DNA from: an uncultured Gammaproteobacteria bacterium
Lineage (GTDB): Bacteria; Patescibacteriota; Patescibacteriia; Patescibacteriales; UBA12465
NCBI GenBank assembly: GCA_964406935.1
Contig: CAYOTM010000003.1
Location: forward strand, 1 to 61,943
Direction: 5' to 3'
Length of the DNA: 61,943 nt
The first letter of the stretch is position 1. Every line of letters starts with the position of its first letter. Positions 6,047 through 49,393 of the stretch are shown here, one piece after another. Both the position numbers and the translations under genes were made by a program. The notes beneath the pieces were generated by a model. The model did not search any database. It saw only the letters and a list, made by a program, of their open reading frames with translations, and was not told the DNA's origin.

Positions 6047-7171
6047 ATGACTGACACTCTTTTAATTTTGTTAATTATTTTAATTTTAGGCGGTATTACG
6101 GCGGTTATTTTCCTATTATTAAAGAAAAAACCTGGTGGAAATGAAGATAAGTTGTTGCCTTTTATGGAGCGTTTAGCCCAGCAATCTGAACAGTTAAATC
6201 AGCTTAGTCGGCAAAATAATGAGTTGCGCCAGGAATTAGACCGTAAATTAAGCGAAACTCATCGGGCTAATCAAGGGCAGTTTGCCCAAACCACTAAAGT
6301 TATTCAAAATATTACCGGCCAATCAGCCAAGCTAATTGCTGAGGTTACGGAAAAGTTAGCTAAGTTAGATGAAACTAATAAACAAGTTATTAATTTTTCT
6401 TCTCAGCTCCAAAATCTTCAAGATATTTTAAAAAATCCTAAACAGCGAGGAGTTTTGGGAGAATATTATTTAGAGGAAACCTTAAAAAATGTTTTGCCGC
6501 CCAAATCTTTTCAAATGCAATATAAATTAGGTAAAGATGAAAAAACCAATAAAGAATTAATTGTTGATGCCGTGGTCTTTGTTAAAGATAAAGTGATCCC
6601 CATTGATGCTAAATTTTCTTTAGAAAATTATGAGCGCCTTCTTAATGCTAGTGATCCAGAAGTTCGCAAAAAATTAGAAAGTCAATTTAAACAAGATTTA
6701 AAAAATCGGATTGATGAAACCGCTAAATATGTTTTGCCAGAAAAAGGGACAATGGAGTTTGCTTTCATGTTTATTCCCTCGGAAGCAATTTATTATGATT
6801 TGTTAGTGAATTCAGTGGGAACAGTGAAAGTTAACACCCGAGATTTAGTAGAGTATGCTTTTCGTGACAAAAAAGTAATTATCGTTTCACCGACTTCCTT
6901 TTTGGCTTATTTGCAAACAGTTTTACAGGGTTTAAAGGCAATGCAAATTGAAGAAAAAGCTAAGGAAATAAAAATTAATATTGAGAAATTAAATAAACAT
7001 TTGTTGAGCTATGATGAGTTTTTAAAGAAATTAGGGATTAGTTTAACCACTAGCGTTAATCATTATAATCAGGCTTATGTTGAATTTAAAAAAATCGATA
7101 AAGACGTTGTCAAAATTACGGGCGTTGAACCCGCGGTGGAGCCAATGAAAATTGAGCCCCCTAAAAAATAA
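6047..7171 (+). CDS. rmuC: DNA recombination protein RmuC
   Basis: N-terminal TM, a long coiled coil, then an RmuC-type nuclease-like region (RGVLGEYYLEETLKNVLP, FMFIPSEAIYYDL). Confidence 0.8.
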   Translation: MTDTLLILLIILILGGITAVIFLLLKKKPGGNEDKLLPFMERLAQQSEQLNQLSRQNNELRQELDRKLSETHRANQGQFAQTTKVIQNITGQSAKLIAEVTEKLAKLDETNKQVINFSSQLQNLQDILKNPKQRGVLGEYYLEETLKNVLPPKSFQMQYKLGKDEKTNKELIVDAVVFVKDKVIPIDAKFSLENYERLLNASDPEVRKKLESQFKQDLKNRIDETAKYVLPEKGTMEFAFMFIPSEAIYYDLLVNSVGTVKVNTRDLVEYAFRDKKVIIVSPTSFLAYLQTVLQGLKAMQIEEKAKEIKINIEKLNKHLLSYDEFLKKLGISLTTSVNHYNQAYVEFKKIDKDVVKITGVEPAVEPMKIEPPKK

Positions 7172-45704: not shown

Positions 45705-46169
45705 ATGAAATGTCCTGTTTGCTATTTTATTGATACTAAGGTTGTTGACTCGCGAGTCGCTTCTGACGGCTTGTCGATTCGTCGTCGTCGCGAATGTCTC
45801 AAGTGTGGTTTAAGATTTTCCACCTATGAAGAGATGGAATTACTTGAATTAATGATTGTTAAGCGCGATGGTCGTAGGGAGTCTTATAACCGTGATAAAT
45901 TAGTTAGTGGTTTACGTAAAGCTTTTGAAAAAAGACCAATTACTGATGATCGTTTTAAAAAAATTATTCACTGTATTGAGCGTGATTTACAAAAACTACG
46001 TCAAACCGAAATTACCTCTCGTCAAATTGGAGTGGCCGTGATGAAACAACTAAAAAAAGCTGATCAGGTTGCTTATATTCGTTACGCCTCAGTTTATGAA
46101 TCCTTTAAAGACGCTAGCGAATTTAGACAAGAGTTAAATAAATTATTAAAAAATAAAAAAGATAAATAA
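45705..46169 (+). CDS. nrdR: transcriptional repressor NrdR
   Basis: MKCPVCYFIDTKVVDSR zinc ribbon plus an ATP-cone, 154 aa. Confidence 0.95.
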   Translation: MKCPVCYFIDTKVVDSRVASDGLSIRRRRECLKCGLRFSTYEEMELLELMIVKRDGRRESYNRDKLVSGLRKAFEKRPITDDRFKKIIHCIERDLQKLRQTEITSRQIGVAVMKQLKKADQVAYIRYASVYESFKDASEFRQELNKLLKNKKDK

Positions 46170-46243: not shown

Positions 46244-48310
46244 ATGTCAGCTAAGATTACAAAAATTAGAAAACGAACGGGTGATATCGTTGATTTTGAG
46301 GATAAGAAAATTACTGAAGCTATTTATAAAGCTTTGTTGGCAGTGGAAGTCGATGACCATGGGTTGGCTGAAAAGCTGAATCAGGAAGCTATCGATCAGC
46401 TTAATAAAAAATTTCATAGTAACAGTATTCCAGCAGTTGAAGAAATTCAAGATGTAGTAGAGGAAACTTTAATTAAGAATCAACAGGTTAAGGCGGCTAA
46501 AGCTTATATTATTTATCGAGAACAACATCGTCAACTTCGAGATTTAAGCAAGAACACTTCTGAAGAAAAATTAATGGAAGATTATTTGGGGCGAGCTGAT
46601 TGGCGTTTAAAAGAAAATAGCAATATGAGCTTTTCAGTTCAAGGGCTTAATAACTACATTGCTTCTGCTATCTCTGCTCGTTATTGGTTAAATAAACTAT
46701 ACCCTGAATCAATTCGTGATGCCCATGTTAAGGGCGATTTTCATATTCACGATTTGGGATTGTTAGCCCCTTATTGCTGTGGTTGGGATTTAAAAGACTT
46801 ATTAATTCGGGGATTTGGAGGAGTCTCGGAAAAAATTCAAAGTAAGCCGGCTAAACATTTTCGGAGTGCTTTGGGTCAGATTATTAACTTTTTTTATACT
46901 ATGCAAGGTGAAGCAGCTGGAGCTCAGGCTTTTGCTAATTTTGACACTTACTTAGCACCTTTTATTCGTTATGACAACTTATCTTTTAAAGAGGTAAAAC
47001 AAGGTTTACAGGAGTTCATGTTTAATATTAATGTGCCTACTCGGGTAGGGTTTCAAACCCCTTTCACTAACATTACCCTCGATGTTACCCCCTCACCTTT
47101 AATTGGTGAAGAAAATGTAATTATTGGTGGCCAAGTAATGCCGGAAAAATATAAAGATTTTCAGGCAGAAATGGATATGTTTAATCAAGCTTTTGCCGAA
47201 GTAATGTTGGCGGGTGATGCTACGGGTCGAGTATTTGGCTTTCCAATCCCTACTTATAATATTGATAAAGACTTTGATTGGGATCGTCCATCCTTGGAGC
47301 CAGTTTGGGAAATGACGGCTAAATATGGAATTCCTTATTTTTCTAATTTTGTAAATTCTGACATGAATCGTGATGATGCGCGCTCAATGTGTTGTCGCTT
47401 GCGTTTAGATAATCGCGAATTACGTAAACGAGGGGGCGGCTTGTTTGGCGCCAATCCTCTTACCGGCAGCCTAGGAGTAGTTACTATTAATCTAGCTCGT
47501 CTTGGTTTTATTTCTCAAAGTAAAGAAGAGCTTCTAGACCGGCTAACCCGCTTAATGGATTTAGCTAAAGAAAGTTTAGAAATTAAACGTAAAGTAGTGG
47601 AAAAATTTACCGAAGATGGTCTTTATCCTTATTCTCGTCATTTTTTAGCTGACATTAAGGAACGGTTTGGTAATTATTGGCAAAATCATTTTAGTACCAT
47701 TGGAATTAATGGAATGAATGAAGCCCTGGTTAATTTAATGGGTAAAAACATTAGTACCAAAGAAGGTTTGGCAGTGGCTGGGGAAATTTTAGACTTTATG
47801 CGAGAAAAATTAATGGACTATCAGAATGAAACTAATAATTTATATAATTTAGAAGCCACTCCTGGCGAAGGTTGTACTTATCGTTTTGCTAAAAAAGATC
47901 AAGAGTTATTTCCTCAAATTACTTGTGCTAACCCAGAGGCCGTTAAAGAAGGAATGGCTCCTTATTATACCAACTCTACTCATTTACCAGTTGGCTTTAC
48001 TGAGGATATTTTTTCCGCCCTTGATTTACAAGATAGTCTACAAACAAAATATACCGGAGGAACGGTTTTGCATGGTTATTTAGGAGAGCGTTTAGAAAAT
48101 GGTAAAACTGCTAAAAAATTAGTGAAAAAAATTGTTTATAATTATCACCTCCCTTACTTCACCATTACCCCTACTTTTTCTATTTGCCCTAAACATGGTT
48201 ATTTAGCTGGTGAACACCAGTATTGTCCTAAATGTGATGAAGAAAATGGTTATTCTGAAGAGGTGATGATGGATACAAATATTGAAAATTTAAGACAATC
48301 GCAGGGCTAA
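46244..48310 (+). CDS. nrdD: anaerobic ribonucleoside-triphosphate reductase (class III), body without the glycyl-radical segment
   Basis: N-terminal ATP-cone, the active-site SMCCRLRLD, and the C-terminal zinc site ICPKHGYLAGEHQYCPKCD. The ORF stops 22 codons after CPKC, before any RVxG[YW] glycyl-radical motif. Confidence 0.9.
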   Translation: MSAKITKIRKRTGDIVDFEDKKITEAIYKALLAVEVDDHGLAEKLNQEAIDQLNKKFHSNSIPAVEEIQDVVEETLIKNQQVKAAKAYIIYREQHRQLRDLSKNTSEEKLMEDYLGRADWRLKENSNMSFSVQGLNNYIASAISARYWLNKLYPESIRDAHVKGDFHIHDLGLLAPYCCGWDLKDLLIRGFGGVSEKIQSKPAKHFRSALGQIINFFYTMQGEAAGAQAFANFDTYLAPFIRYDNLSFKEVKQGLQEFMFNINVPTRVGFQTPFTNITLDVTPSPLIGEENVIIGGQVMPEKYKDFQAEMDMFNQAFAEVMLAGDATGRVFGFPIPTYNIDKDFDWDRPSLEPVWEMTAKYGIPYFSNFVNSDMNRDDARSMCCRLRLDNRELRKRGGGLFGANPLTGSLGVVTINLARLGFISQSKEELLDRLTRLMDLAKESLEIKRKVVEKFTEDGLYPYSRHFLADIKERFGNYWQNHFSTIGINGMNEALVNLMGKNISTKEGLAVAGEILDFMREKLMDYQNETNNLYNLEATPGEGCTYRFAKKDQELFPQITCANPEAVKEGMAPYYTNSTHLPVGFTEDIFSALDLQDSLQTKYTGGTVLHGYLGERLENGKTAKKLVKKIVYNYHLPYFTITPTFSICPKHGYLAGEHQYCPKCDEENGYSEEVMMDTNIENLRQSQG

Positions 48311-48373
48311 ACTGCTAACTTGCTAGATTGAAAAATTTATTTTATAATTTATATATAGGCTAATCTGGAAATA

Positions 48374-48562
48374 GTGGAGAATTCTCTCTATTTGCTGATT
48401 ACCATGCTTGTCACTATGAGCCCAATTCAAAAACCAAGACAAGAGTGCATTGTTTACAGCCGCGTAGTTGGTTGGTTAACGCCAGTTCGAAATTATAATC
48501 CAGGAAAAGCCTCTGAATATAAAGATCGCAAGACTTTTAAAGTTAATGTTGAGGCTAACTAA
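48374..48562 (+). CDS. NrdD C-terminal glycyl-radical domain fragment (in frame with nrdD)
   Basis: CIVYSRVVGWLTPVRNYNPGKASEYKDRKTF matches the class III RNR glycyl-radical tail. It is in the same frame as nrdD, separated by in-frame TAA, TGA and TAG. The start codon is uncertain: GTG 48374 or ATG 48404, neither with a clear RBS. Confidence 0.6.
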   Translation: MENSLYLLITMLVTMSPIQKPRQECIVYSRVVGWLTPVRNYNPGKASEYKDRKTFKVNVEAN

Positions 48563-48658
48563 TTATTTACTGGAAGTTTCGGGTGGTCGGGCTGGAACAA
48601 CATAAAGATCAAGCAGGGCATTTTTCCGCCGTGCCCGCCCAAGATTTCTTTTTATTTT

Positions 48659-49393
48659 ATGCAAATTGGCGGATTAGAAAAATTAAGCTTATTGGATTAT
48701 CCGGATAACGTGGCGGCGATTATTTTTACTCAAGGATGTAATTTTCGATGCCATTTCTGTTATAACCCTATGCTTGTCTGGCCCCAGATTAAGGAGTCGG
48801 ACAAAAGACATACAGAAAAAGATCCCCCTTTAATTAAGGAGAAAGATCTTTTTCTTTTTTTAAAGTCAAGAATTAAAAAATTGGATGGGGTGGTCATTTC
48901 TGGGGGTGAACCGACCCTTCATCCTGATTTACCTGAGTTTATTGCTAAAATAAAAAAATTGGGCCTATTGGTTAAATTAGACACCAATGGCACTAATCCT
49001 AAAATGTTAGCCGATTTATGGAAGGATAAATTAATTGATTATGTTGCTATGGATATTAAGGCTCCTTGGGAGAAATATCAGTTGGTAGTTGGGGTCCCTG
49101 TTGATTATCATCTTTTAAAAAAAAGTGTTAAAATGTTAATTAGTAAAGACATTCCGCATGAATTTAGAACTACCTTGGTGCCCGGGTTGCACACCAAAAA
49201 AGATGTTGCTATTATGGCTAAGAATTTAGTGGGAGCTCAACGTTGGTATTTACAAAAATTTAAATCTAACACCACTTTAGTTAATCCTAAATTTGCTGGA
49301 AAAAAATCGTTCACTAATCAAGATATGAAAAAAATGGCTAATTTAGGCCAAAAATATGTTAAGGACTGTCAAGCTCGTGGCCTTGATAGTTAA
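48659..49393 (+). CDS. nrdG: anaerobic ribonucleotide reductase activating protein (radical SAM)
   Basis: GCNFRCHFCYNP (CxxxCxxC) and GGEPTL, 244 aa, directly downstream of nrdD. Confidence 0.9.
   Translation: MQIGGLEKLSLLDYPDNVAAIIFTQGCNFRCHFCYNPMLVWPQIKESDKRHTEKDPPLIKEKDLFLFLKSRIKKLDGVVISGGEPTLHPDLPEFIAKIKKLGLLVKLDTNGTNPKMLADLWKDKLIDYVAMDIKAPWEKYQLVVGVPVDYHLLKKSVKMLISKDIPHEFRTTLVPGLHTKKDVAIMAKNLVGAQRWYLQKFKSNTTLVNPKFAGKKSFTNQDMKKMANLGQKYVKDCQARGLDS

Follow-up and report, generated by a model that had tools for sequence, protein, structure and literature searches.

How can a class III (anaerobic) ribonucleotide reductase be complete when its nrdD gene ends before the glycyl-radical motif? 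The question is raised by a locus on contig CAYOTM010000003.1 of an uncultured bacterium of the Patescibacteriota (GenBank assembly GCA_964406935.1), of which we analysed a stretch of 61,943 nucleotides (nt), referred to here as the window. Glycyl-radical enzymes are normally single chains, and their glycine loop lies buried and has to swing outwards before it can meet the activase. At this locus the motif SRVVGW is present, but on a separate open reading frame (ORF) of 48 amino acids (aa) that lies past three stop codons. Our reading, to which we assign a probability of about 0.85, is that the locus encodes a naturally split class III reductase with a two-chain architecture, made from two separately translated genes and served by an activase. 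We are less confident of the details of activation, docking and a possible 'renewable cartridge' than of the architecture itself.

The larger part, here called the nrdD body, is encoded at 46244..48310 on the forward strand (688 aa), ends at the stop codon TAA 48308-48310 and has a C-terminus reading ...CPKCDEENGYSEEVMMDTNIENLRQSQG*. It matches the Pfam ATP-cone and positions 1-531 of 562 of the NRDD profile (PF13597, 603 bits), as well as positions 2-666 of 684 of the NCBIfam model NF006126 'ribonucleoside triphosphate reductase' (1028.8 bits, cut-off 548) and TIGR02487 (520.6 bits, cut-off 326). The chain contains the ATP-cone, the catalytic barrel, the finger-loop cysteines SMCCRLRLD (C383/C384) and the zinc site CPKH...CPKC, whose pattern CPKH-x9-CPKC shows the same C/H/C/C order as T. 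maritima NrdD. Within a 71-row alignment (A3), C383, C384, C648 and C661 are invariant and C664 is nearly so. After the zinc site there is only a non-conserved tail of 20 residues, and the tails of relatives are variable too. The glycyl-radical loop is absent from the body, which lacks the RVxG[YFW] motif that class III enzymes carry on the same chain; this missing same-chain motif is the point of departure from the canonical family. The ORF and profile matches bear out the initial annotation, which had described nrdD as ending at 48310 without the glycyl-radical motif. Truncation is not peculiar to the window: among 8000 body homologues scored, the 120 best measure 673-703 aa throughout, which is the truncated length.

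The glycyl-radical part is found 105 nt downstream of the body stop, in an ORF that shares the frame of the body in the window, holds ECIVYSRVVGWLTPVRNYNPGKASEYKDRKTF and carries the motif ECIVYSRVVGW. The small gene occupies 48416..48562 on the forward strand, and its 48-aa product (MSPIQKPRQECIVYSRVVGWLTPVRNYNPGKASEYKDRKTFKVNVEAN), identified by profile matches and a conserved ATG, begins MSPIQKPRQECIVYSRVVGW..., with the radical glycine at Gly19 (codon GGT, 48470-48472). The initial annotation was right to place the radical motif downstream of nrdD, but the gene starts at the conserved ATG 48416 (MSPIQKPR...) and not at about 48446. GTG 48374 was also considered as a start and was rejected in favour of this conserved ATG. 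The small protein matches positions 531-562 of the Pfam NRDD profile (E 4.1e-6) and positions 648-683 of NF006126, and the NRDD matches of the two ORFs abut exactly at position 531. It matches only NrdD models (PF13597 and the NrdD NCBIfam models) and not the PF01228-type glycine domain of pyruvate formate-lyase. Against TIGR02487 it scores only 25.5 bits, where the cut-off is 326, and Pfam, NCBIfam and PHROGs hold no model specific to it.

A protein search with the small ORF returned 93 stand-alone homologues, all of 40-65 aa and with E <= 5e-5 (92 of them <= 6e-11), which carry PF13597 or no domain and some of which are named 'anaerobic ribonucleoside-triphosphate reductase' by JGI or NCBI. 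Across the 32-codon core, the synonymous difference (pS) is 0.80 and the non-synonymous difference (pN) is 0.15, and the ratio of non-synonymous to synonymous substitution (dN/dS) is 0.105 over 776 unsaturated pairs, so that strong purifying selection acts on the core.

Put end to end, the two parts leave no gap in the protein and line up in the same order along T. maritima NrdD. The body up to CPKCDEEN followed by QECIVYSRVVGW... passes the junction without loss against CPVCGKAK--VDEYMRIVGY of the T. maritima enzyme (4COI/4U3E). The alignment to intact NrdD that the initial annotation had proposed defines an exact split point, without overlap or loss. In fused homologues only 4-8 residues separate the last zinc cysteine from the VYSR motif, and the extra DNA is, as read from these alignments, an insertion-like break in the very short stretch that links the zinc ribbon to the glycine loop.

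We modelled this arrangement by artificially joining body residues 1-668 to small-protein residues 9-48, using a 71-row alignment that included fused homologues. The joined model has a mean predicted local distance difference test (pLDDT) score of 90.7 and a predicted template modelling (pTM) score of 0.83. The block means of pLDDT are 93 for residues 651-660, 77 for residues 661-670, which hold the split site and form a local minimum, 88 for the glycine loop at residues 671-680, and 91-94 thereafter. The solved structures that it matches best belong to class III reductases, namely those from P. copri, S. thermophilus, T. maritima and T4 (8P23, 9DCA, 4U3E and 1H79). The model shows that the two gene products together make up a complete NrdD, and that the cut falls in a locally less confident stretch (residues 661-670). 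Cryo-electron microscopy and hydrogen-deuterium exchange of P. copri NrdD revealed a highly mobile glycyl-radical domain that can become fully disordered (PMC11226230), which makes a detachable glycine loop mechanistically plausible.

To compare the arrangement between genomes, we scanned one genome per species and obtained 80 loci, all from Patescibacteria and mostly labelled Falkowbacteria, with 72-82% protein identity. One scanned locus ends at a contig edge and was left out, which leaves 79 relatives with both parts; the count of frame offsets given below includes the window. The nrdD body lacks its own glycine domain in the window and in all 79 relatives. The split is found at the same place in 79/79, with the body stopping 6-52 codons past CPKCDEE and the glycine piece following 63-379 nt downstream, counted from the conserved flank. 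The initial annotation had listed a genuinely split enzyme, with the glycyl-radical part detached, as one of its readings and had suggested looking for the same split in relatives; the comparative evidence from these 79 genomes supports that reading.

While the split point is fixed, the DNA between the two genes is not. The spacer in the window (48311..48415, forward strand) is 105 nt long and non-coding, and both its length and its sequence vary among relatives, where the distance from body stop to small-gene ATG ranges from 11 to 249 nt (median 74.5). In every locus the start codon of the small gene is an ATG that precedes the conserved core by 8-9 codons, and the leader reads MSPI (MSPIxTxR) in 65 of the 80 loci and MSPV/T/K, MAP- or MTP- in the others. 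Its serine is encoded by AGC, AGT, TCA, TCT or TCC, and the use of both AGY and TCN codons shows that selection acts on the amino acid and not on an RNA. The small protein measures 43-54 aa in the relatives closest to the window and reaches 64 aa in more remote ones.

The neighbouring genes are conserved as well, in a cluster of the order nrdR, nrdD body, small gene and nrdG. The nrdR gene at its head (45705..46169, forward strand) encodes the transcriptional repressor of nrd genes, with Pfam Zn_ribbon_NrdR and ATP-cone matches, and it lies 5' of the body in 78/79 relatives; in the remaining one the contig ends first. The activase gene nrdG (48659..49393, forward strand) encodes a 244-aa radical-SAM protein that matches Pfam Radical_SAM and TIGR02495 NrdG2 (198.9 bits, cut-off 131) and carries the cluster motif CNFRCHFC expected of the cognate activase. 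As the initial annotation had noted for the window, nrdG is intact, and this holds for 79/79 relatives, in which it starts 0-157 nt, typically 9-15 nt, past the small gene.

Does the split extend beyond this group? A search of 1.84 billion cluster representatives (50% identity) was used to collect the best 150 hits, and the zinc anchor could be located in 135 of these nearest NrdD representatives. Of these, 68 end 0-60 residues past the zinc site without a glycine motif, although some of these 'split' calls may be contig-end fragments. The other 67 keep the motif, 66 of them just past the zinc site (CPxCGxxxEVYSRVVGY) and one with a misfired anchor search. When 122 representatives were placed on a neighbour-joining tree, the split state fell into clusters, with 19 changes compared to about 41 when labels were permuted, but it did not form one clean clade. 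With a tree this crude, and with some of the split calls perhaps contig-end fragments, fission events cannot be counted.

We looked up the contigs of nine distant split-type representatives, together with viral contigs. The small gene lies directly 3' of the body in loci L096, L099 and L100, past nrdG on the 3' side in L097, past a DNA methylase gene in L093, past thyX in L098 and 5' of the body in L094. In the IMG/VR viral contigs L081, L083, L085 and L086 the glycine-coding core begins 63-134 nt past the body stop, and in L082 and L088 the small gene is found 1.4-2.8 kb downstream. The distant small proteins have unrelated leaders, e.g., MSKKVVVVPCEVYSRVVGYF and MNKKEKLIKLQESKECVIKAMEDPSLCEGTASVYSRVSGYY. 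The small gene is thus a separate conserved gene, the break falls at a fixed point in a short linker, and the position of the gene relative to the body is free in other lineages. A scan of a metagenome collection with a distant split-type body returned only two fused relatives at 49% identity, and a scan of one viral collection with such a body returned no match. When GenBank phages were compared with a viral small-subunit sequence, a limited test, four matches were obtained, the two that were examined were fused NrdD proteins, and no cultured-phage example was found.

Could the two parts be expressed as one chain after all? A ribosome might read through or hop over the stops, and translational bypassing does exist in T4 gene 60. 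Both ORFs share a frame in the window, as the initial annotation had stressed, but this emphasis is misleading since the offset of the small gene relative to the body is 0, 1 and 2 in 34, 20 and 26 of the 80 loci, respectively, and the shared frame is therefore a coincidence. Such a ribosome would have to pass three different stop codons, namely TAA 48308, TGA 48329 and TAG 48356-48358, of which the first two had been located correctly and the third had been placed at 48353. It would also have to cross gaps of up to 379 nt, far past known hops, to reach a gene that has a conserved start codon of its own, and we regard recoding into a fused chain as highly improbable. Removal of an intron would likewise yield one continuous NrdD. 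The conserved flanks around a variable extra segment would fit this explanation, phage T4 nrdD (sunY) carries a group I intron, and the distant locus L098 contains a group-I-like 209-nt insert, but inside the small gene past the glycine codon and not at the split site. The search with covariance models for group I introns and other ribozymes proposed in the initial annotation returned only chance-level Rfam matches between 47900 and 48900 at E <= 10, with no intron or ribozyme among them, and a whole-window Rfam scan at gathering scores found three tRNAs only. Folding of 48240-48460 was not significant either (z -0.48). The segment shrinks to 63 nt and is unconserved, with a non-coding spacer of down to 11 nt, which is too short for a ribozyme. 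Additionally, the last 8-9 codons of the supposed intron spell the conserved peptide ATG-Ser-Pro-Ile..., with synonymous changes and AGY/TCN serine changes, and in other lineages the small gene stands 5' of the body (L094) or is separated from it by other genes (L082, L088, L093 and L097). The intron reading was therefore rejected for this locus, and the chance that it holds is very slight.

Seen alone, the locus resembles a gene broken by stop codons, and it had been suggested that nrdD is a decaying pseudogene or that the stops are sequencing or assembly errors. However, 79 independent assemblies, produced by many studies, show the identical architecture, purifying selection on the small ORF is strong (dN/dS ~0.1), the body reaches 1028.8 bits against its NCBIfam model, and nrdG and nrdR are intact everywhere. 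The independent assemblies, the selection and the intact partner genes together exclude this explanation for all practical purposes. An insertion scar had also been proposed on account of two 10-mer direct repeats (48305-48314 and 48358-48367). Their coordinates are right, but they match at only 9 of 10 positions, they are not conserved in the nearest relatives, and the repeat finder reported neither them nor anything else convincing; the scar is not supported as a present-day explanation. A different kind of alternative accepts the small protein as a gene product and takes it for a GrcA-like spare part of a full-length NrdD encoded elsewhere, with the body inactive or otherwise employed. GrcA shows that free-standing glycyl-radical modules exist, and the window represents only 62 kb of the genome. 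Yet the small gene is tightly linked to the truncated body in 79/79 relatives, the best 120 of the 8000 scored homologues share the truncated length, the catalytic residues of the body are conserved, and the split point is exact, without overlap or loss. Because of the strict linkage to the truncated body in particular, we consider a spare-part role unlikely.

Several points weigh against the reading as a split enzyme. The joined model gives no test of non-covalent docking, since it was built as an artificial single chain with fused homologues in the alignment, and the natural concatenation modelled from a single sequence was uninformative (pLDDT 35.6). No obvious tethering motif was found in the 20-aa body tail and the 8-aa small-gene leader of the window. 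The distant split-type body in L095 has no small gene within 3 kb. The promoter-like site and the hairpin described below are consensus or folding matches in A+T-rich DNA. The window covers only 62 kb of the genome, and this need not be its only ribonucleotide reductase. Lastly, assembly and activation in trans are both steps that we infer from sequence.

If the small gene is translated separately, how might it be expressed? A Shine-Dalgarno-like motif precedes only 1 of the 42 ORFs of at least 120 aa in the window, which has a G+C content of 34.8%, and the regions before starts are A+T-rich instead; the lack of such a motif before ATG 48416 is therefore uninformative. A sigma-70-type promoter-like site (TTGCTA-17 nt-TATAAT, 48320..48348, forward strand) agrees with the consensus at 10 of 12 positions. 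The pattern TTGnnA-17-TATAAT is kept in the three nearest loci (L103, L104 and L002) with a different 17-nt spacer sequence, and TATAAT is enriched in the spacers, being present in 44 of 80 compared to 20.8 +/- 3.6 in shuffles. This makes the site a candidate for an internal promoter that serves the small gene and nrdG. An imperfect hairpin (48355..48411, forward strand) in the presumed 5' leader of the small gene ends 4 nt short of the start codon. Its minimum free energy (MFE) is -17.6 kcal/mol (z -2.44), 5 of 200 shuffles fold as well, and the covariation across four loci is weak. The NrdR box (consensus ACACWATATATWGTGT) has no match with up to three mismatches anywhere in the window.

The region between the small gene and nrdG (48563..48658, forward strand) is 96 nt long in the window, where most relatives have only 9-15 nt. 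It has a G+C content of 45% and can fold into a long G+C-rich stem, behind which a T-run leads directly up to the nrdG start. Folding of 48555-48670 gave a z score of only -0.21 and a terminator scan gave no report; the stem may, with weak confidence, be an attenuating terminator or leader structure. Eight relatives (L003, at 6291-6365, and L004, L006, L007, L008, L012, L013 and L014) share another hairpin in this interval, some 45 nt long (GGAGCGCGGGGA...UCCCGGC.CUCC), in which 4 of 11 pairs are kept through changes on both sides. The window lacks this hairpin, which has no Rfam match at E <= 1.

The free ends that result from the split show recurrent features outside the window. Over the loci L001-L080, at least two cysteines occur in the last 8 residues of the body in 23 of 80 cases (CSTC, CC, CQC or CVEC), and 39 of 80 small proteins have a cysteine among their last 8 residues, with cysteine-rich ends in, e.g., L003, L039, L046 and L061; in the window, neither the body tail nor the small-protein C-terminus has such cysteines. 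Of the distant loci, L094 encodes a small protein that ends in GHCCSCSK. These cysteine-rich ends may act as a redox shuttle or a metal tether. The bodies of L093, L096 and L100 carry a long, charged, helical-looking tail (e.g., EEQLKKYKETLDKIDQTIKELTDEI), and their small proteins open with a similar leader of 25-35 residues. Judged from these sequences, tail and leader may form a coiled-coil tether that joins the two chains.

Other NrdD genes encountered in the searches are interrupted or extended in different ways. In L098 (6348-6700; NCBI GCA_015485995.1, WFSP01000073.1), the small gene is broken by 209 nt (6454-6662) right after the glycine codon, and joining T6453 to A6663 restores ...RVVGYLRPVSQWNNGKKQEFKKRKTFKEK*. 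GCUCAAC within the insert can form a 7-bp helix in which the U preceding the insert takes part through a U.G pair, the final base of the insert is G, and the insert has G+C-rich hairpins (MFE -65.4 kcal/mol). It has no Rfam match at E <= 1 and, by these sequence features, resembles a compact group I intron. Lengths of 800-1879 aa are common among close NrdD relatives, which then match the query in 2-4 stretches and have Pfam Intein_splicing or LAGLIDADG matches (cluster representatives in the range P0214-P0363; loci L088, L093, L095, L097 and L098). These matches indicate one to three inteins in such NrdDs, with breaks that recur near query residues ~270, 384 (beside the catalytic CC) and 545. 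A human faecal phage scaffold (MT835493.1, L102:2030-4438) encodes a fused NrdD of 802 aa with an extra thioredoxin/glutaredoxin-like segment (CPNC motif) C-terminal to the glycine domain, and P0256, P0258, P0271 and P0273 are alike.

For the split enzyme itself, we propose the following division of labour. The 688-aa body carries the ATP-cone, the zinc ribbon and the barrel with its thiyl-radical cysteine loop. The 48-aa protein carries no more than the glycine loop and a short C-terminal segment, which in an ordinary NrdD come after the zinc ribbon. The 5-kDa small subunit would dock non-covalently in the barrel and place Gly19 beside the finger-loop cysteines. NrdG and S-adenosylmethionine would abstract the glycine hydrogen, either on the free peptide or on the docked subunit with its loop swung out, and catalysis would then run as in an ordinary NrdD, from the glycyl radical to a cysteine radical to the substrate. 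The candidate internal promoter would let the small gene and nrdG be transcribed apart from the body. A plausible benefit is that oxygen cleavage at the glycyl radical would destroy only a replaceable 5-kDa subunit, much like a built-in GrcA 'spare part'. A more far-reaching version, which we offer tentatively and think may well be wrong, is that the 48-aa protein is a diffusible, exchangeable radical carrier that is activated by NrdG off the enzyme and then loaded into, or replaced in, the body, with the helical or cysteine-rich tails of some lineages serving as tether or redox shuttle.

Compared to known systems, the locus shares most with canonical NrdD/NrdG as described for T4, E. coli, T. 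maritima (4U3E/4COI) and P. copri (8P23). The domains and their order are the same (ATP-cone, barrel with finger-loop cysteines, zinc ribbon, glycine loop RVxG[YFW] and C-terminal segment), as are the activase and the linkage to nrdR. The difference is that the chain here is broken after the zinc ribbon and before the glycine loop, and that the loop is the product of its own gene. The T4 nrdD (sunY) frame is likewise interrupted by non-coding DNA; however, in T4 this DNA is a ribozyme that splices itself out and so gives back one chain, whereas the window has no ribozyme signal and an independent start codon.

GrcA (YfiD) of E. coli and Y06I of phage T4 are also small free-standing proteins with a glycyl-radical loop, and for the small protein described here a role in trans is predicted. 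In PMC12288474 and the references there, GrcA is described as being activated by the cognate activase and as restoring oxygen-cleaved pyruvate formate-lyase in trans. GrcA is, however, homologous to the C-terminus of pyruvate formate-lyase, whereas the small protein matches only NrdD models (PF13597). Furthermore, GrcA is a stress-induced repair part for an enzyme with its own glycine domain. As the body here has none, the small protein, unlike GrcA, would be an obligatory subunit.

A reductase chain divided over two adjacent genes, with the C-terminal module on the second, is also found in the split class II enzyme NrdJa/NrdJb of Pseudomonas aeruginosa (Crona et al., 2015, as cited in PMC9669993). 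NrdJa/NrdJb differs in being B12-dependent and without a glycyl radical, and NrdJb is a large protein (IscU-like with a zinc finger) and not a 5-kDa radical peptide. In open-access papers and bioRxiv, and in targeted reading of work on ribonucleotide reductases and glycyl-radical enzymes, we came across no NrdD described as split or as encoded by two genes, whether in candidate phyla radiation bacteria or elsewhere. The small ORFs are already in databases through annotation pipelines, but in the same literature we found no interpretation of them.

Annotation pipelines can overlook the small gene. In L104 (3570-3869; NCBI GCA_036681025.1), whose body is 85% identical, the small gene is present in the DNA and no gene has been called. 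Since the small gene scores far below model cut-offs and is sometimes missed by gene callers, genomes of this large uncultured group may be mis-scored as carrying a truncated, inactive enzyme.

About half of the nearest NrdD clusters are split, including phage-like contigs with variable gene order, which argues that the arrangement is widespread and apparently successful. We know of no other obligate two-chain class III ribonucleotide reductase, and this would be the first. It would extend the 'spare part' idea of GrcA from repair to normal design, and with the glycine loop on a 5-kDa protein of its own, studies of activation and docking would gain a minimal and tractable substrate. If the small protein is indeed an exchangeable carrier, class III would functionally resemble class I, where radical-storing and catalytic subunits are separate, and genome-reduced bacteria exposed to oxygen, together with their phages, would possess a cheap and renewable 'radical cartridge'.

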